Part shown: positions 50 through 41,777 of the stretch, piece by piece | Position numbering within the stretch: the first letter of the stretch is position 1 | How the letters are laid out: each line of letters starts with the position of its first letter | Source: a virus | Strand: one strand, 5' to 3' | Length of the DNA: 41,777 nucleotides | UHGV virus genome: UHGV-0060642 | Position numbers and translations under genes: made by a program | Notes under the pieces: model-generated | Databases searched by the model: none | Told to the model about the DNA's origin: nothing | The model's input: the letters and a program-made list of their open reading frames with translations, nothing else

Positions 50-1120
50 TTATTTGATTTCAATTTTGTCCCACTCCCTGCCTCTGTCATCACGATACTG
101 TGATGCCATGGTGTCCGACTTATGCCCGAGAAGATGTTGAGCAAACTTATCGCTTATCTGCTTCTCATAGAGTCTTGCAGACAAACTGCGCAACTCGTGA
201 AAGGTAGGCGGATCCCCTTCGAAGGAAAGACCTGATGCTTTTCGTGCGCGCATAAAATACCTTGATACTGTGCCGGATGAAAGCGGTTCACGACGAGTAG
301 ATGCAATTATGGTTTCTCCGCCAAGAATCTCTTTGCATTTATCAAGTGATTCCTTCATTGATATCCCAAGAGCATCAACATGCAATGTTGTTGGGATGGC
401 AATTTTTACGCCGGTTTTGCTTTGCTCGACATAAAGATAGCCATCTACGATATCAGACCACTTCATTTCGCATAAATCCCCAACACGCTGCCCGGTAACA
501 ACAGCCAGTTCCATTGCAAGTCTAAGCCAACATGGTGATGATTCTGCTGCTTGATAAATTTTCAGGTATTCGTCAGCCGTAAGTCTTGATCTCCTTACCT
601 CTGATTTTGCTGCGCGAGTGGCAGTGACCGGGTTTGTTGTTATATGGCCTTCAGCTATTGCCTCTCGGAATGCATCGCTCAGTGTTGATCTGATTAACTT
701 GGCTGACGCCGCCTTGCCCTCGTCTATGTATCCATTGAGCATTGCTGCAATTTCTTTTGTGGTGATGTCTTCAAGTGGAGCATCAGGCAGCCCCCTCCTT
801 ATTGCTTTAATTTTGCTCATGTAATTTATGAGTGTCTTCTGCTTGATTCCTCTGTTGGCGAGGATTTTTTCGTAGCGATCAAGCCATGAATGTAACGTAA
901 CAGAATTATCACTGTTGATTCTCGCTGTCAGAGGCTTGTGTTTGTGTCCTGAAAATAACTCAATGTTGGCCTGTATAGCTTCAGTGATTGCTATCCTCCT
1001 GTCTCGGCCTAATCCAAACTCTTTACCCGTCCTTGGGTCCCTGTAGCAGTAATATCCATTGTTTCTTATATAAAGATTAGGGGGTAAATCCCGGCGCTCA
1101 TGACTTCGCCTTCTTCCCAT
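50..1120 (-). CDS. int: Tyrosine integrase, lambda Int type
   Basis: 356 aa; N-terminus MGRRRSHERRDLPPNLYIRNNGYYCYRDPRTGKEFGLG and C-terminal catalytic region (HELRSLSARLY...HLLGH...Y) match recalled lambda Int almost residue for residue; ATG verified. Confidence 0.97.
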   Translation of the reverse strand: MGRRRSHERRDLPPNLYIRNNGYYCYRDPRTGKEFGLGRDRRIAITEAIQANIELFSGHKHKPLTARINSDNSVTLHSWLDRYEKILANRGIKQKTLINYMSKIKAIRRGLPDAPLEDITTKEIAAMLNGYIDEGKAASAKLIRSTLSDAFREAIAEGHITTNPVTATRAAKSEVRRSRLTADEYLKIYQAAESSPCWLRLAMELAVVTGQRVGDLCEMKWSDIVDGYLYVEQSKTGVKIAIPTTLHVDALGISMKESLDKCKEILGGETIIASTRREPLSSGTVSRYFMRARKASGLSFEGDPPTFHELRSLSARLYEKQISDKFAQHLLGHKSDTMASQYRDDRGREWDKIEIK

Positions 1121-26095: not shown

Positions 26096-27514
26096 ATGCC
26101 GATTCAGCAACTTCCGCTTATGAAAGGTGTCGGCAAAGACTTCCGAAACGCCGACTATATCGACTATCTGCCAGTGAATATGTTGGCTACACCCAAAGAA
26201 ATCCTCAACAGCAGCGGATATCTTCGCTCATTCCCGGGCATTGCCAAACGCTCTGATGTAAACGGCGTATCGCGCGGCGTCGAGTACAACATGGCGCAGA
26301 ATGCTGTTTATCGTGTGTGTGGCGGCAAGCTCTACAAAGGCGAAAGCGAAGTCGGTGATGTCGCCGGAAGTGGTCGTGTATCAATGGCGCATGGTCGGAC
26401 ATCTCAGGCGGTAGGCGTTAATGGTCAACTGGTCGAGTATCGCTATGATGGCACGGTTAAAACAGTCTCAAACTGGCCTACAGACAGCGGATTCACGCAG
26501 TATGAGTTAGGTTCGGTTCGTGACATTACTCGCTTACGTGGCCGTTATGCGTGGTCAAAAGACGGCACTGATTCATGGTTTATCACTGACCTTGGAGACG
26601 AATCGCATCCTGACCGCTACAGCGCACAATATCGCGCAGAATCGCAGCCGGACGGAATCATCGGCATCGGAACATGGCGAGACTTCATCGTATGCTTTGG
26701 TTCATCAACGATTGAATATTTCTCCCTGACTGGTGCAACCACCGTTGGTGCTGCTTTGTATGTCGCACAGCCATCGCTGATGGTGCAGAAAGGCATTGCC
26801 GGGACTTACTGCAAAACGCCATTCGCTGATTCTTATGCGTTCATCAGCAATCCGGCAACTGGTGCGCCGTCTGTGTATATCATCGGCTCCGGTCAGGTAT
26901 CACCAATCGCCAGCGCGAGCATTGAGAAAATTCTCCGCTCCTACACTGCTGATGAACTGGCTGATGGCGTGATGGAATCGCTGCGATTTGATGCGCATGA
27001 GTTGCTGATTATCCACCTTCCGCGCCATGTTCTAGTATACGACGCATCTTCAAGCGCCAATGGTCCGCAATGGTGTGTACTGAAAACAGGCCTGTATGAC
27101 GATGTGTACCGCGCTATCGACTTCATTTACGAAGGCAACCAAATTACGTGCGGCGATAAGCTTGAATCGATGACAGGGAAATTGCAGTTCGATATCAGCA
27201 GCCAGTACGACAAGCAACAGGAACACCTGCTGTTTACTCCGTTGTTCAAAGCGGATAACGCCAGAGTTTTCGACCTTGAAGTTGAATCGTCAACTGGCGT
27301 TGCGCAGTACGCTGACCGCCTGTTCCTCTCTGCAACCACTGACGGCATAAATTACGGTCGTGAGCAGATGATTGAGCAGAATGAACCGTTCGTTTACGAC
27401 AAACGCGTTTTGTGGAAGCGGGTCGGACGCATCAGGAAAAATGTCGGATTCAAATTGCGCGTTATCACGAAGTCACCTGTCACTCTTTCTGGCTGCCAGA
27501 TAAGGATTGAGTAA
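26096..27514 (+). CDS. Tail hub protein, P22 gp10-like
   Basis: 472 aa; [49 protein letters not shown] closely matches recalled P22 gp10. Confidence 0.9.
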
Positions 27515-28362
27515 TGGCGGATTCATCACTGAATAATCCTGTCGCGGTTCAGGCTACGCGCCTTGATGCTTCAATTTTGCCACGCAATATATTCAGCCAG
27601 TCTTACCTGCTGTATGTCATAAATCAGGGTGCTGATGTTGGTAACGTGGCTAACAAGGCCAACGAGGCCGGACAGGGCGCTTATGATGCACAGGTCAGGA
27701 ACGATGAGCAGGATGTGATTCTCGCTGACCATGAGCAGCGAATTTCTGCTGCGGAAGCAACGCTTGTTAATCATGAGGAGCGAATCAGCCAGGCAGAATC
27801 AACTCTTCAGGAACATGAAACACGAATAGCTCAGAATGAAAGCGATATTGCGTCGCTTGATACCAGAGTTCAGTCGCTGGAATCGCAGGTTTCAGACCAT
27901 GAAACGCGCATCGATGCTCTGGAGTATGCCACTACTCGCAAGAAGTCAGAGGTTGTTTACTCTGGCGTATCTGTAACCATCCCGACAGCGCCGACCAACC
28001 TTGTTAGCCTGCTGAAAACGCTAACGCCGTCATCCGGCACGTTGGCACCATTCTTCGACACCGTTAACAACAAGATGGTTGTGTTCAACGAGAACAAAAC
28101 CTTGTTCTTCAAGCTGTCGATCGTCGGGACGTGGCCCAGCGGAACCGCCAACAGGTCAATGCAGCTAACCTTTTCCGGCTCTGTTCCTGACACACTTGTG
28201 AGCAGTCGTAATGCGGCGACAACAACCGATAACATCCTGTTAGCTACGTTCTTCAGCGTGGATAAAGACGGCTTTCTTGCCACAAATGGCAGCACGTTAA
28301 CCATTCAGTCGAATGGTGCGTCGTTTACTGCCACAACCATCAAAATCATTGCGGAGCAGTGA
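27514..28362 (+). CDS. Tail needle, P22 gp26-like, with extended C-terminal knob domain
   Basis: N-terminal 60 aa ([36 protein letters not shown]...) match P22 gp26; heptad coiled coil; about 120-aa C-terminal extension not present in P22. Confidence 0.85.
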
Positions 28363-33315: not shown

Positions 33316-33735
33316 TTATTTGTATGAAATCAACGAGTTAAGCTCCCTCTCATTTAGAGATTGGAATCTTTTTTCAGTTATATCAATGATGGCTGGCAAT
33401 AGTTTTTTTACCTTCTCATGACCATCAGGTTTAATGATAGCAATGATCTGGATATGAATTGGATATGTGTTGTGTACCGCAAATATCAAAAAGTTATCGC
33501 TAACTCTACGATGTATTGGCGTTGTTTTTAACCAAGGATCATCTACTCCAGGGATCCTGATGTGCGACTTGTAAATTCCCGATAAGACGGCGTGATGGTT
33601 TCTCTCAAACCCACCAATCTTACCAAGATAAGCTGAAACGGTGCCTCTGTTTTTGTAGTTTGCAAGAGCCTTCGCAAAGTATTGTTCTAATGGTCCAGCC
33701 GCTGCATCTACAACAATGCTTATGCGGTTTTCCAT
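33316..33735 (-). CDS. Uncharacterized protein, possibly YafO-like toxin fold (cassette gene B)
   Basis: 139 aa, ATG; segment SDNFLIFAVHNTYPIHIQIIAIIKPDGHEK resembles the recalled YafO C-terminal region (...HLVYCQG...LLIAILKPEPHK); weak and unverified. Confidence 0.65.
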   Translation of the reverse strand: MENRISIVVDAAAGPLEQYFAKALANYKNRGTVSAYLGKIGGFERNHHAVLSGIYKSHIRIPGVDDPWLKTTPIHRRVSDNFLIFAVHNTYPIHIQIIAIIKPDGHEKVKKLLPAIIDITEKRFQSLNERELNSLISYK

Positions 33736-34319
33736 TTTGGTGCTTCCATGCCAAATCTTTTATGTGAATCTTCAACTGATTTCTTGAATGAAGCCAACTC
33801 TTCTTCAGTGAACTCTTCAGGTTCAGCATATGATAGTGGTATGTGCTGCATTGCTAGCGTCACAAGCCCCATAGTTAGCCTTTTGTATTCTATAAAAGTA
33901 TTTATTGAGTGGTTTTTCATTGTTGTAAGAGTTGACATATGGGGCTTCCACGCATCGCTGTTCTCAGCGATGAAGAAGGTATACAACAGTTTCGCGATAC
34001 CATAATCAAGCTTAGATATTTGATCGTTCAACATATCTACATCGTCATGTTGAATATCAAGTGAGGAAATATCTTCTTCCGTACCATTACTTAATAGGTC
34101 AATGAATGTAATGTACTTTTTGCAAACTTCCTCTACAGGTGACATAACGCAGTAGATCTTGCTAAGAGCTTCAGAAGCCTGTTTTTTAGACAAAGAGCCG
34201 CTATGACTGCGATCAAAGTCTGAAATTGAACGCTCGATAGATGTTGATATGTCAGAAAAAACGTTTTCAATTTTTCCTGGCTCTTGATTCAGGATGGCCA
34301 TAACGCCTATCTCAATCAC
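33720..34319 (-). CDS. Uncharacterized acidic protein (cassette gene A)
   Basis: 199 aa from GTG at 34319 (AAGGT upstream) or 193 aa from ATG at 34301; overlaps gene B by 16 nt; about 42 bp downstream of mnt on the same strand. Confidence 0.6.
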   Translation of the reverse strand: MIEIGVMAILNQEPGKIENVFSDISTSIERSISDFDRSHSGSLSKKQASEALSKIYCVMSPVEEVCKKYITFIDLLSNGTEEDISSLDIQHDDVDMLNDQISKLDYGIAKLLYTFFIAENSDAWKPHMSTLTTMKNHSINTFIEYKRLTMGLVTLAMQHIPLSYAEPEEFTEEELASFKKSVEDSHKRFGMEAPKWKTA

Positions 34320-36095: not shown

Positions 36096-36121
36096 GACCC
36101 GGCTTCGGCTGGGTTTTTTTA
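36096..36121 (+). terminator. Rho-independent terminator after ant
   Basis: CCCGGC-ttcg-GCTGGG hairpin followed by TTTTTTT. Confidence 0.75.
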
Positions 36122-36188
36122 TGCCCAAAATTCACCGTAGCCATGCTGCGGCGATTCCTTGTATCTGGAGCAAATTAAATGACAGACA

Positions 36189-36689
36189 TTACCTACTCAA
36201 CAGATGGTCAGCAACCATGTTTGCTGCCTTATAAGCTATAGCCGCTTCATCAATGGTGTTGAATCTCCCAAGGGTTATGTTTTTACCTGAGACATTTATC
36301 TGAGCTTGCCATTGATTTCTGGCTTGACAGAAAGTTACCCCCTTGATTCCAGCATTGCTATTTCGAGGTCCGACATTTAATGCATTTACGACTCTGCTAA
36401 CATCCCTAAGGTTTGAGATTGCGTTATTTCTTCTGTTTCTATCAATGTGGTCAATCTCTTGTTTGGGCCATTCGCCATATACATACAGCCAGGCAAGTCT
36501 ATGTGCAAAATATCTTACGCCATCAATATTAATTGCGTTATATCCATAAGAAATTGTGCCAGCAACTTTCCCAACAGCACCTCTGGCGCTTAATTTCTTT
36601 TTCCAAGTGAAAATTCCTGTTTCTTTATTGTAATCGAGAACCTCCATAAGGCGCTCCCGAGTTACTACCTCGTGACGTCTCTTACTCAT
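36189..36689 (-). CDS. HNH endonuclease with AP2-type DNA-binding domain (homing-endonuclease-like)
   Basis: HNH signature [26 protein letters not shown]2-like [40 protein letters not shown]; start at internal ATG 36689 preceded by GGAG. Confidence 0.8.
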
Positions 36690-36702
36690 TATTTTCTCCG
36701 GA

Positions 36703-39417
36703 ATGTTTATTATGCCAGAACAATTATACAACGTAGTTGTTTCACAACCAAGTCAGTTATTTACTTTAGCTCGCTCGTTTAAAGCAAATGCCAATGGCAA
36801 AATTTATATCGGTAAAATTGACACTGACCCGGTAAATCCTGAAAACCAGATTCAAGTTTATGTAGAGAACGAAGATGGCTCTCACGTTCCTGTTGCACAG
36901 CCAATCGTCATCAATGCCGCTGGGTATCCAGTATATAACGGACAGATTGCCAAATTCGTAACCGTGCAAGGCCATTCTATGGCTGTTTACGATGCTTATG
37001 GCACTCAGCAGTTTTATTTTCCAAATGTATTAAAATACGATCCAGATCAGTTTGGCCCAGACTTCAAAGAGCAGTTATCTCAATCAGGAGCATACATTAA
37101 TGATGATTCAAAAGGTGATGCATTAATTGGGGTAAGGCAGCCATTTACCGGGGCTGTAACTATAACTCAGCATGAAAACAATGCTCTTTTCTTAAATGTA
37201 AAACAATTCGGAGCAATTGGGGATGGGAAATATCATCCATTATCTGAGAGGTTTTCTTCAATTTCTGAAGCAAAATCCTTATATCCTTTTGTTGACTCAT
37301 TATCTCAGTCAATAGACTGGGCCGCGTGGCAAGCTGCCCTTAACACAGGAAAGGTTATTTATGGTACTGATAATGCGTATGTAATAACGGATACGTTAAC
37401 ACCTGTTTCTGGTGGTGGGATAATTGGTCTTGGTGTGGGCAAATGGGTCTCCGGATATACTGCAACATTTGCTCCTGATATTACCACAGGGACCACATTC
37501 CTGATGTACGGGGTAGGAAATAAAAAATATACTGTAGATTGTGTTTCTAATATGGATGTTAGTGGTGGTGTGGTTTCTAATCCATCTTCCGAAGACCCGT
37601 ATACAACAACAGCACCTGCGTCATCATATGATTTATTGGATTTTACTAACGGTGATGCTAATGGGACTACAAGAGCCACGCTTAAACCATTCTCTGCCGC
37701 AATATTGATGCCTGAGACAGGATGTGTTCGCCTTGAGAACTTTCGTGTTGTTCCATATTTCAATGGGCTGGATGGTTATAAAGACATTGCAAATACCGGT
37801 CTTGGCGATGAGTGGGATGTAGGTATTTGGTCACGTGCGTCTTTTGGCAATGAATACCGCAATTTGCAGGTGGTTGGATACTGGCGCAAGACGGCACTTT
37901 TAAAAACGAACATTCCTGTATCTGGCACGCTGGCTGCTCAGGGCGAGGATGAAAACTATTATCACTGTAGATTCCAGGGATTCAAGGGTGTTTCGATCCG
38001 CGCCAATGATGTATTCCGAATTACAGCGGTAACGTCCAGCACTATCGAAATCCCATGGTCAGCAAGCCACACCTTCGAAACGTCCGGAGTTTTAAGATCT
38101 GGAGGCAGGAATTTCACTTATTCAGGATTATCCGTATCCGGTGATAAGTTAGTATTTACTGGAGTGTCTAACGCTTCTGAGGCAACAGTAGGTTCTACTA
38201 TACGGCGAAATGACATAGATAACTTTGGTATGGCGGGAACGCAATTTTTCGATTGCTACATTACCAGCCTGTATCACCACACACATCTGCTTGCCACATC
38301 GCAATACCTGTCTCAACCATTCAGCCGACCATCAGAGTGTATGGAGGTTTCAGGGGAACCAGTTCGCGGTGTACAGGTACATGCAGGAACCATTCAGGGA
38401 TGGGATGATGTTCTTATTCATCTGCATGACTGTGGAAATATGAACTTTTACAGTACATATTTCGAAAGCCAGCAAGCATATGTAACTATAAATGGTGGTA
38501 ATGCTATTGGTTATGGAGCACGTATGATAGCTTCCCGGCAATCAACAAGCTCATTACCATATGCAGCAGGGAATACACGAGTGCTTAGAATGGTCGGGTG
38601 CTCTGAAGGCAATGGCGTTGACTGGGGTCCTGTATTTAACAACTATACAGGAGGAAGATATAATTCTGGAGACGGTGTATTTAACCCCCGCGATGCATTT
38701 ATAGACCATAAATCTCTTCCTGAGCAGTCAGGAGGTGAGTCAAGACTCGTATCACAAAAAGGAAATGCCAGAGTAGTATGTGGTGTTGGTAAAACTGTAC
38801 TGCTTGGACCAACGTCAGGAGATTGTAATTTACAGAGTAATACCGGAAGTTTAAATATTAGAAGTGGGATAAGAGTAAGAGTCGGTCACGCTGATGGAAC
38901 AGACTGGTGGTTGGCAGATGCTAATAAAATAGCTCCTGTTGATGATAATGTTAAAGCTATTGGACAGCCATCAAACAGATGCTCTGTTATCTATGCAGGA
39001 ACCGGGTCAATCAATACATCAGATGAAACTCTTAAAACAAGATATGATATTCTTAATGCAGAGCGTGATGCCGCTATTGAAATAAAGTCAGTCATCTATA
39101 AATTTAAATTTAATGACTCAATTAATCACAAAGGAATTGAGTCGTCCAGGTATCATTTTGGCGTTGGCGCTCAAACTGTAGGGGATATTCTTAGAAAGCA
39201 TGGTTTAAATCCTGAGCAATATGCTTTTTGGTGTTACGATGAATGGCCTGACGTATGGGATGAAGAGGTGATAACTGAAGAGAGCACAGATCCTGATACA
39301 GGTGAGAAAATTTATTCTCAATATAAAACAGGAGATATGATTCTTGTAAAAAAAGCAGGAGGACGCTACGGAATTCGTTATGACGAATTGGCTATGTTTA
39401 TATTAATGGCAATGTAG
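36703..39417 (+). CDS. Tailspike: P22-type head-binding domain, central beta-helix domain, C-terminal intramolecular-chaperone (S74-like) domain
   Basis: N-terminus ...[49 protein letters not shown]...[15 protein letters not shown]...NVLKYDPDQ matches the P22 gp9 head-binding domain; C-terminus ...[11 protein letters not shown]...[23 protein letters not shown] resembles auto-cleaving chaperone domains of T5 pb1 and K1F endosialidase; alternative ATG at 36712. Confidence 0.88.
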
Positions 39418-39435: not shown

Positions 39436-39465
39436 ATCCCGCATAAAAATGCGGGATTGTTTTTA
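39436..39465 (+). terminator. Rho-independent terminator after the tailspike
   Basis: ATCCCGC-ataaaaat-GCGGGAT followed by TGTTTTT. Confidence 0.75.
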
Positions 39466-39760: not shown

Positions 39761-39930
39761 TGCTCTGTTACAGGTCACTAATACCATCTAAGTAGTTGAT
39801 TCATAGTGACTGCACATGCTGTGTTTTGCAGTATTATGTAGTCTATTATTTAGATCAAAACCATCATAACACATTGATATTGATGATTTTTCTTGTTTCT
39901 CATTCAGCTTTTTTATACTAACTTGAGCGA
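39761..39930. promoter_or_regulatory. attR: attR (lambda P arm, core GCTTTTTTATACTAA near 39907-39921, host B' arm)
   Basis: ctgttacaggtcactaataccatctaagtagttgattcatagtgactgca... matches recalled lambda attP P arm; core followed by CTTGAGCGAAACGGGAAGGTAAAAAG, recalled as E. coli attB right-side sequence. Confidence 0.9.
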
Positions 39931-40011: not shown

Positions 40012-40488
40012 TTAACTAAACATCGCAGTAATCGAGGCACTCGCCAGAGAGTGAAAATGAACGTTAAACCCGACCATCGCGCCGCTGGCACCTTCATCGA
40101 CATCAATACGTTCTACATCCAGCGCGTGAACGGTAAAAATGTAGCGATGGGTTTCGCCTTTCGGCGGCGCTGCGCCATCGTACCCGGTTTTACCAAAGTC
40201 GGTACGCGTCTGCAAAACGCCGTCTGGCATAGCTACCAGACCAGAGCCAAACCCTTGCGGTAATACGCGGGTATCAGCGGGTAAATTAACAACTACCCAG
40301 TGCCACCAGCCGGAGCCGGTTGGCGCATCCGGGTCATAGCAGGTGACAACAAAACTTTTCGTTCCCACAGGAACATCATCCCACGCCAGATGCGGTGAAA
40401 TATTATCGCCATCGTAACCCATGCCGTTAAAGACATGACGATGCGGCAGCTTATCGCCATCGCGCAGATCGTTACTGATGAGTTTCAT
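40012..40488 (-). CDS. ybhB: Host YbhB (PEBP/RKIP-family protein)
   Basis: 158 aa MKLISNDLRDGDKLPHRHVFNGMGYDGDNISPHLAWDDVP...; PEBP-family motifs; located next to attB-lambda in E. coli. Confidence 0.9.
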   Translation of the reverse strand: MKLISNDLRDGDKLPHRHVFNGMGYDGDNISPHLAWDDVPVGTKSFVVTCYDPDAPTGSGWWHWVVVNLPADTRVLPQGFGSGLVAMPDGVLQTRTDFGKTGYDGAAPPKGETHRYIFTVHALDVERIDVDEGASGAMVGFNVHFHSLASASITAMFS

Positions 40489-40499
40489 TAGAATGCCTC

Positions 40500-41777
40500 C
40501 GGGAAACCTCGGCCTTCAGACCGGGGAGGAAAGGAGGCGGTTTTCCGACTAACTGTACTTTGCATAATCACATTTTCCTCTTTAGTATGTGAACACATGA
40601 AACGCGCATATAAATACCGGTTTTACCCGACAACTGAGCAGGCTGAGCTTTTAGCTCAGACGTTTGGCTGTGTGCGCTTCGTCTACAATTCCATCCTTCG
40701 TTGGCGTACCGATGCGTACTACGAGCGAAAAGAAAAGATCGGTTATCTACAGGCCAACGCTCGCCTTACGGCGCTCAAAAAAGAGCCTGAATACATATGG
40801 CTGAATGATGTTTCCTGCGTTCCCCTCCAGCAGTCGTTGCGCCACCAACAAGCCGCCTTTGCTAACTTCTTTGCCGGACGAGCTGCATATCCGGCTTTCA
40901 AAAGCAAACGGCACAAACAGGTGGCTGAGTTCACTGCCAGCGCGTTTAAACACCGTGACGGCGAGTTGTATATAGCAAAGAGCAAGTCGCCGCTGGATGT
41001 TCGCTGGAGTCGAGAATTACCATCTGCGCCGTCAACCGTTACCATTTCCAGAGATAGCGCTGGCAGGTACTTTGTTTCCTGCCTGTGTGAGTTTGAACCT
41101 GTATCAATGCCTGTTACCGCTAAAACGGTCGGCATTGATGTGGGCTTAAAAGATTTATTCGTCACCGATACCGGATTCAAAACCGACAATCCCCGCCACA
41201 CCGCTAAATATGCGAAGCGATTAACGCTGCTACAGCGACGTTTAAGCAGGAAGCAAAAAGGCTCAAGAAACCGTATTAAAGCCCGCTTAAAGGTCGCCCG
41301 ACTCCACGCGAAAATCGCCGATTGCCGGATGGACAATCTGCACAAGTTGTCCCGCAAACTGATTAACGAAAACCAAGTTGTTTGCGTCGAATCCCTCAAG
41401 GTGAAAAACATGATCCGCAACCCGAAGCTGTCTAAAGCAATAGCTGACGCAGGCTGGAGCGAACTTGTTCGCCAGCTCCAGTACAAAGGCAAATGGGCCG
41501 GGCGGTCAGTGGTCGCCATTGACCAGTATTTACCGTCCTCAAAATGCTGTAGTTGCTGCGGTTTCACCATGCAAAAAATGCCTCTTAATGTTCGTAAATG
41601 GCACTGCCCTGAATGCGGCGCAGACCATGATCGCGACATTAACGCGGCACGTAATATTAAAGCTGCCGGGCTGGCAGTGTTAGCCCACGGAGAGCCTGTA
41701 AACCCTGAATCGCAGCACGCGGCTTAGGTTCGGCTCGTTGAAGTGGGAATCCCCGTCATTCAGGGCGGGGAGCCGTC
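40500..41777 (+). mobile_element. Probable TnpB-only IS200/IS605-type element (ends not defined; may extend beyond the window)
   Basis: tnpB inserted upstream of ybhB; hairpin-capable sequence after the tnpB stop (tccccg...cgggga) could belong to the right end/omega-RNA region; no tnpA present. Confidence 0.45.
40597..41727 (+). CDS. tnpB: IS200/IS605-family TnpB (OrfB) RNA-guided-nuclease-like protein
   Basis: 376 aa; N-terminal hallmark KRAYKYRFYPTTEQ; C-terminal zinc finger CCSCCG...CPECG; RuvC-like segments (GIDVGL..., ...DRDINAARNI). Confidence 0.85.
   Translation: MKRAYKYRFYPTTEQAELLAQTFGCVRFVYNSILRWRTDAYYERKEKIGYLQANARLTALKKEPEYIWLNDVSCVPLQQSLRHQQAAFANFFAGRAAYPAFKSKRHKQVAEFTASAFKHRDGELYIAKSKSPLDVRWSRELPSAPSTVTISRDSAGRYFVSCLCEFEPVSMPVTAKTVGIDVGLKDLFVTDTGFKTDNPRHTAKYAKRLTLLQRRLSRKQKGSRNRIKARLKVARLHAKIADCRMDNLHKLSRKLINENQVVCVESLKVKNMIRNPKLSKAIADAGWSELVRQLQYKGKWAGRSVVAIDQYLPSSKCCSCCGFTMQKMPLNVRKWHCPECGADHDRDINAARNIKAAGLAVLAHGEPVNPESQHAA

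Follow-up and report, generated by a model that had tools for sequence, protein, structure and literature searches.

A P22-Like Escherichia coli Prophage Tailspike Predicted to Combine a Head-Binding Domain, a Beta-Helix Body, and a Self-Cleaving Chaperone

What kind of receptor-binding protein is encoded by the last gene of the P22-like prophage in virus genome UHGV-0060642? This stretch of DNA, the entire 41,777 nucleotides (nt) of which are referred to here as the window, contains an open reading frame (ORF) for 904 amino acids (aa) at positions 36703–39417 of the plus strand. A preliminary description based on the letters alone had taken its product for a chimeric tailspike with a P22-type head-binding domain, a central depolymerase, and a C-terminal auto-chaperone domain. 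According to the analysis presented here, the gene very probably encodes the tailspike of a P22-like Escherichia coli prophage, a receptor-binding and receptor-destroying protein composed of a head-binding domain, a beta-helix, and a self-cleaving chaperone (Table 1). The ORF of the described length is indeed present in the window, but translation probably starts at the ATG at 36712 (Met4), which would give a protein of 901 aa. This start is favored because the Prokaryotic Genome Annotation Pipeline (PGAP) placed the start at the matching codon in strain MP1, whose 5′ sequence is identical, and because the exact 901-aa product has been deposited in NCBI (14 contigs, named “phage tailspike protein”). 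The 904-aa form is absent from the same NCBI protein collection. All residue numbers given below follow the 904-aa numbering.

Domain architecture and predicted auto-cleavage

The N-terminus of the protein is a virion attachment domain of the P22 type. Residues 4–116 match the Pfam family Head_binding (PF09008) over the full profile (positions 1–113) with an expectation value (E) of 8e-64 and 213 bits at a cutoff of 24. Moreover, 79 of the 112 residues between positions 9 and 120 are identical to P22 gp9, in agreement with the gp9 likeness claimed earlier for the first 110 or so residues. In a sequence search against solved structures, gp9 aligned with residues 9–124, where the similarity to it ends, and Sf6 gp14 was the closest solved relative (residues 7–187, E 1e-82). 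The docking partners of such a domain are encoded upstream, where PHROG matches identified homologs of gp4, gp10, and gp26 of the P22-type tail hub (among these matches adaptor Ad3, E 6e-70, and head closure Hc3, 472 aa, E 7e-229). By homology, the head-binding domain would dock the tailspike trimer on the gp4/gp10-type tail hub of the same prophage.

The opposite end of the protein resembles the intramolecular chaperone domains of other phage fibers and tailspikes. The C-terminal 170 residues aligned with the solved chaperones of Kp7 gp51 (7y5s, E 6e-23), the K1F endosialidase (3gw6, 2e-14), T5 pb1 (4uw8, 6e-12), and GA-1 (3gud, 2e-9), and a family profile derived from 61 relatives matched 7y5s, 9vvr, 3gw6, and 4uw8 with E values between 6e-37 and 1e-23. 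The structure of residues 140–904 was predicted by AlphaFold2 as a single chain, with a mean predicted local distance difference test score (pLDDT) of 89.8 and a predicted template modeling score (pTM) of 0.77. The underlying alignment combined 88 of the 337 relatives that a search with the central domain had retrieved from 1.84 billion representative proteins with other homologs. An earlier full-length model built on a 30-sequence alignment (mean pLDDT 52.5) was discarded and not used for the fold search. In the retained model, residues 780–904 (pLDDT >90) form three helices, long hairpins, and a C-terminal helix, and Foldseek matched the S74 domain to 3gw6, 4uw8, and 3gud with a probability of 1.0. 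The likeness to the T5 fiber and K1F chaperones that had been noticed in the last 120 or so residues is thus found at the level of both sequence and fold.

The N-terminal edge of this S74 domain also contains the residues expected for auto-cleavage. S773 aligns with the position of the Ser-to-Ala exchange in 3gw6 and 4uw8 and K778 with the lysine of both structures, forming the Ser/Lys dyad of this domain type. Further upstream, D748 and R759 occupy the positions of D1239 and R1250 in T5 pb1, and the full set of D748, R759, T772, S773, and K778 does not vary among the relatives, including those with as little as 42% overall identity. The stretch immediately before the serine aligns weakly with the mature endosialidase 1v0e (E 0.5), and residues 738–772 correspond to the C-terminal end (last 35 positions) of the Pfam family End_tail_spike, at 22.8 bits and below the cutoff of 25. 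The auto-chaperone proposed in the preliminary description is therefore supported by both the S74 fold and the complete cleavage residue set.

In T5 pb1, the bond between Thr1263 and Ser1264 is cut, with Ser1264 being activated by Lys1269, and Arg1250 of the neighboring chain together with Asp1239 completes the cleavage site (PMC4690869). Because the site is completed by an arginine of another chain, cleavage depends on correct folding of the trimer (PMC4690869). A similar course of maturation can be proposed for the prophage tailspike. Judging from the homologs, three chains would fold together, and the chaperone (residues 773–904) would nucleate the trimerization of stalk and beta-helix. Once the stalk is correctly formed, the K778-activated S773 would cut the bond between T772 and S773, with R759 of the neighboring chain and D748 completing the site, as the conservation of these residues suggests. 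Cleavage would then free the C-terminal fragment, with a predicted mass of 15.3 kDa, and leave a mature chain of 83 kDa (M4–T772).

The exchangeable receptor cassette and its presumed target

The tailspike has its head-binding domain in common with P22, Sf6, and CUS-3, and the remainder of the protein recurs on N-termini that are unrelated to it, a distribution that bears out the receptor-module swapping assumed in the preliminary description. In a multiple alignment, identity to proteins with other N-termini begins at the KGDALIGV junction in the neck. From there on, residues ~136–904 were found on four different virion-attachment N-termini. They share 97% identity with a 991-aa protein of other E. 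coli prophages (for example in YDC107), where they follow an unrelated N-terminus, and 72.5% identity with the receptor-binding protein of the Kayfunavirus YZ1, where they stand behind the N-terminus of a T7 tail fiber. The same residues are ~40% identical in the Vectrevirus phages KMB14 and LF31P3. As judged from these alignments, the beta-helix moves as a unit with stalk and chaperone, forming a single cassette that can be exchanged between phage chassis unrelated to each other, and the locus provides a clean example of such a cassette moving among four of them. A different pattern is seen in the tailspike of Combat2C1 (L007:1510–3984), which has the same head-binding domain, a near-identical chaperone, and a far more divergent beta-helix (42% overall identity) that retains the family motifs LGDxWDVG, VGYWR, and E..G.PVR. 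Therefore, the center alone can also be exchanged between conserved ends, and exchange has affected both the ends and the center. The junction motif may act as a recombination joint for receptor cassettes. Variants of it occur in the Sf6 tailspike (KGDAMIGVKQP) and in YZ1 (KGDSLYTVKQP).

The body of the cassette was modeled as a right-handed parallel beta-helix with a pLDDT >90 over residues 140–669, and its best matches in the fold search were mostly tailspike depolymerases. Fold and composition (12.4% Gly, 9.1% Ser, and 8.8% Thr in residues 206–730, 30% for the three together) agree with the Gly/Ser/Thr-rich beta-helix described previously, and a depolymerase function is predicted for it: the beta-helix would bind and probably cleave a host surface polysaccharide, by which the short tail could reach the outer membrane. 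At the sequence level, the 61-sequence family profile matched PDB sequences only in the N-terminal cap and at the S74 end, with no match for residues ~250–730. The pectate lyase-type Pfam profiles PF12708 and PF13229 gave no match on the tailspike even at E values up to 1; the relatives from Combat2C1 and KMB14 pass PF12708, in the N-terminal cap only. The body corresponds to PHROG 33794, which comprises ~340 clusters at 50% identity among the 1.84 billion proteins, and it was found in 8 of 50,697 phage records, all of them from Escherichia and without any characterized member.

Two known types of catalytic body were considered and rejected. Firstly, a P22-type endorhamnosidase would be expected to resemble gp9 beyond the head-binding domain, but the similarity ends at position 124, and the body has neither sequence nor close structural likeness to residues 125–666 of P22 gp9. 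Secondly, an endosialidase of family GH58 is contradicted by the lack of any match to the PF12217 propeller or the PF12195 barrel on the tailspike; of the endosialidase-related Pfam profiles, only Peptidase_S74 and the final 35 positions of the stalk profile match. One database record calls the 991-aa relative a “putative endo-N-acetylneuraminidase.”

A distinct host surface target, as proposed in the preliminary description, is plausible. We tentatively suggest that the body represents an uncharacterized depolymerase family whose E. coli members recognize a glycan independent of any single O serogroup, such as a particular K capsule or another shared exopolysaccharide. Such a glycan would explain the occurrence of near-identical modules in O102:H6 and sequence type (ST) 73 strains as well as that of prophage relatives of the YZ1 protein in strains of serogroups O102, O6, O1, and O153. 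Two lysogens carrying the module could be placed from published papers, YDC107 as O102:H6 and DLL7555 as ST73. In a survey, close relatives of the YZ1 protein were reported from prophages of strains with serogroups O102, O6, O1, and O153, and it was suggested that something other than O-antigen serves as the receptor (PMC10408124). These observations, though thin as evidence, fit a receptor that occurs in more than one O type. For YZ1, KMB14, and LF31P3, no published receptor was found in the literature. If the suggestion is correct, the cassette would contain a new enzyme specific for a capsule or another glycan and, in extra-intestinal pathogenic lineages of E. coli, constitute a new determinant of host range.

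It is also possible, if doubtful, that the body is a classical endoglycosidase directed against the O-antigen of one E. coli O serogroup rather than against a capsule or another glycan, which would be compatible with the main reading of the protein as a receptor-destroying tailspike. The best-studied P22-like tailspikes (those of P22, Sf6, and HK620) act on O-antigen, and the O-antigen endorhamnosidase of Sf6 is the nearest relative of the N-terminal 187 residues. However, both the different backgrounds in which YDC107 and DLL7555 carry near-identical receptor modules and the serogroups listed in the survey, together with the non-O-antigen receptor suggested there (PMC10408124), argue against such a restriction, and CUS-3 exemplifies that P22-like phages are able to target capsules.

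Improbable, in our view, is a third option, in which the beta-helix would be an adhesin that binds a surface glycan in the manner of a fiber-like receptor binder but does not cut it. Conservation was assessed in 89 diverse relatives at 25–50% identity, and seven polar residues proved to be invariant or nearly so: R433 and E588 are found in 89 of 89, D372 and H525 in 87, E548 and R555 in 86, and D436 in 83. Because their spacing approximates that of the beta-helix rungs, these residues may form one conserved groove, as would be expected for an active site. The predominance of depolymerases among the best fold matches likewise speaks against a pure adhesin, and the tailspikes of P22, Sf6, HK620, and CUS-3 are treated as enzymes in the literature (PMC5380687).

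Some points weigh against the view of the protein as a receptor-destroying, self-cleaving tailspike. The Pfam match to Peptidase_S74 (PF13884, residues 773–835) is marginal, since its 23 bits exceed the cutoff of 22 by only 1 bit. The stalk was modeled with low confidence in the monomer (pLDDT 50–70 over residues 670–779), and the model comprises a single chain only; low values in this region are expected if an intertwined trimeric stalk is modeled as one chain. PHROG 33794 is annotated as “unknown function,” and the YZ1 receptor-binding protein was classified as subtype X28 without a serogroup (PMC10408124). Finally, no published experiment was found for this tailspike or its close relatives. 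The reading nevertheless yields predictions at the level of single residues, namely processing at T772|S773 by K778, R759, and D748 and candidate catalytic residues such as D372 and E588. It also points to an uncharacterized depolymerase family in prophages of clinically relevant E. coli lineages (O102:H6 and ST73 strains), which, with a known substrate, could help in predicting phage host range and in typing capsules or O-antigens by means of an enzyme.

The 5′ end of the gene and the prophage context

The start of the tailspike gene appears to have been remodeled by an inserted endonuclease gene. A gene for an endonuclease with an HNH_3 domain (Pfam E 2.5e-16) and an AP2 domain (E 5e-6, below the cutoff) lies on the opposite strand within what was originally the 5′ end of the tailspike gene. 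A prophage of strain UPEC_U013, which is 98–99.5% identical on both sides, lacks this endonuclease: there, 34 bp take the place of window positions 36193–36759. Only the ancestral start codon and the following 11 nt have persisted upstream of the endonuclease, and the replacing segment supplies the new start. Compared to the UPEC_U013 allele, 22 of the first 26 codons differ, 14 of them synonymously, whereas none differ among codons 27–40, and identity across the rest of the common sequence is 99.5%. The original and the new N-terminus, MTDITAN and MPEQLYN, are equally long. From its sequence, the arrangement resembles a trace left by a homing endonuclease, with its recoded target adjoining. 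The endonuclease gene and the new 5′ end occur at 99–99.8% identity in 15 complete E. coli genomes, among them MP1 (99.8%). MP1 is the host of phage vB_EcoP_Kapi1, and in the deposited genome of this phage the first 117 residues are encoded with 96.6% identity.

That this insertion destroyed the original start and left the tailspike gene as a dead remnant is very improbable, since the stranded ancestral start codon, the lack of a strong Shine–Dalgarno sequence ahead of 36703 or 36712, and a terminator-like hairpin after the antirepressor gene ant (36096–36115, from a consensus scan only) are opposed by an intact reading frame of 901 codons, by the near-identical occurrence of endonuclease and new 5′ end in the 15 genomes and in MP1, the host of Kapi1, by the preserved length of the N-terminus, and by a recoding that is mostly synonymous.

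Upstream of the functional tailspike gene assumed here, the prophage encodes a complete virion module of the P22 type with terminase, portal, coat, gp4-like adaptor, gp10-like hub, tail needle, and three ejection proteins, and an Mnt/Arc/ant region separates this module from the tailspike gene. Downstream, the terminator-like hairpin listed in Table 1 is followed by a gene-free stretch of ~490 bp. The sequence GCTTTTTTATACTAA, which we take to be the lambda att core, is located at 39907–39921 just before ybhB (40012–40488, minus strand), and the integrase at the other end (50–1120, minus strand) has a lambda arm-binding domain. The prophage thus occupies the lambda attachment site of E. coli, and the combination of P22-like virion genes with lambda-type integration makes it a mosaic. 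In relatives whose tailspikes have the same ends, integration relies on IntS or another integrase and takes place at other sites.

Some neighboring genes may be mentioned for completeness. The tail needle gene (27514–28362, plus strand, 282 aa) matches the “tail needle knob” family, and the needle therefore bears a C-terminal knob. Between the ejection genes and mnt lie two ORFs on the minus strand (33720–34319, 199 aa, and 33316–33735, 139 aa), whose sizes equal those of two CUS-3 hypothetical proteins encoded at the corresponding position (genes of 600 and 420 bp); the 199-aa ORF gave no Pfam match. Outside the prophage, ybhB is followed by a gene for a TnpB/IS605 OrfB-type RNA-guided endonuclease (40597–41727, plus strand, 376 aa), which is situated between ybhB and bioA. 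A TnpB gene occupies the same position in strain UPEC_U013, in whose near-identical locus bioA and bioB follow.

Table 1. Features of the tailspike gene and its immediate surroundings, in window coordinates.
Feature	Position	Strand	Remarks
Remnant of ancestral tailspike start, ATGACAGACATTAC (start codon + 11 nt)	36179..36192	+	UPEC_U013 alignment, BLAST breakpoints
HNH_3 + AP2 endonuclease gene	36189..36647	−	Longest ORF extends to 36731; Pfam; PGAP extent in MP1 and Combat2C1
Tailspike gene, likeliest extent	36712..39417	+	901 aa + stop; longest ORF starts at 36703
Recoded 5′ tract of tailspike gene	36712..36789	+	Codon comparison with endonuclease-free UPEC_U013 allele
Head_binding (virion attachment) domain, residues 4–116	36712..37050	+	Pfam PF09008; identity to P22 gp9 and CUS-3
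Neck/linker, residues 117–165, with module junction K136-G137-D138 (KGDALIGV, from nt 37108)	37051..37197	+	Alignments
Right-handed parallel beta-helix, presumed depolymerase body, residues ~166–669	37198..38709	+	
Presumed C-terminal stalk, residues 670–772, with D748 and R759	38710..39018	+	Ends at predicted scissile bond
Predicted auto-cleavage site T772|S773 with K778 (TSDETLK)	39016..39036	+	Alignment to 3gw6 and 4uw8
Intramolecular chaperone/Peptidase S74 domain, residues 773–904, 15.3 kDa	39019..39414	+	Pfam, structures, Foldseek
Terminator-like hairpin + T-run	39436..39457	+	19 nt past stop codon; consensus scan only

Comparison with known tailspikes and chaperones

The tailspikes of CUS-3, HK620, Sf6, and P22 are the standard review example of a conserved N-terminus combined with swapped catalytic modules (PMC5380687), and the protein described here fits into this series. 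Like P22 gp9 and Sf6 gp14, it has the common head-binding domain, which is 70% identical to that of P22, and the identity to Sf6 amounts to ~71% over residues 4–190. It also shares with the tailspikes of P22, Sf6, and HK620 a beta-helix body of the same general fold and the position of the gene after the immI region of a P22-like genome. It differs from them at the C-terminus, as the tailspikes of P22, Sf6, and HK620 gave no match to the S74 region; to our knowledge, these three lack an S74 domain and are not auto-processed. Compared to P22 gp9, the protein is ~235 residues longer, consistent with the preliminary description of a tailspike far longer than that of P22, and ends in an S74 domain with a predicted cleavage site.

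The chaperones of K1F (3gw6), T5 pb1 (4uw8), GA-1 (3gud), and Klebsiella phage Kp7 gp51 (7y5s) are homologous to its C-terminus (E 2e-9 to 6e-23) and have the same fold, the same serine with a lysine at +5, and the upstream arginine and aspartate, with cleavage being a prediction for the prophage protein. Here, in contrast, the chaperone is attached to another receptor-binding body and to a P22-type N-terminus. A phage counterpart of the cassette as a whole, the YZ1 receptor-binding protein (YP_009798557.1), corresponds to residues 134–904 and reaches 80% identity in the beta-helix body, but its N-terminus consists of a T7 tail fiber domain and a Tail_spike_N domain suited to a T7-like virion.

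The same layout in the same kind of phage is found in the tailspike of CUS-3 (ABQ88383.1), a Lederbergvirus and prophage of E. coli K1. This characterized endosialidase contains a Head_binding domain (1–113), a GH58 propeller, a barrel, a stalk, and a Peptidase_S74 domain (818–878). The two proteins are 82% identical over the first ~121 residues and 36% identical in the stalk end and chaperone, including the TSD..LKT cleavage motif, and in both prophages the tailspike gene adjoins ant and the prophage end. Between their ends, however, no similarity is detectable: the center of CUS-3 is a polysialic acid-specific GH58 beta-propeller with a beta-barrel, which matches PF12217 with 775 bits, whereas the tailspike under study has no match to this family and a beta-helix instead. 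Moreover, the capsule-modifying gene neuO stands beside the tailspike gene of CUS-3, whereas no gene lies between the tailspike gene and attR in the window. We rate the tailspike as an ordinary member of its kind because its design is familiar and an identical protein has already been deposited. The combination of a head-binding domain, an exchangeable depolymerase, and a self-cleaving chaperone is that of a textbook modular tailspike and leaves the view of the system as a whole unchanged, with CUS-3 as the characterized precedent for joining a P22-type head-binding domain to an S74 chaperone in an architecture of an already known kind.

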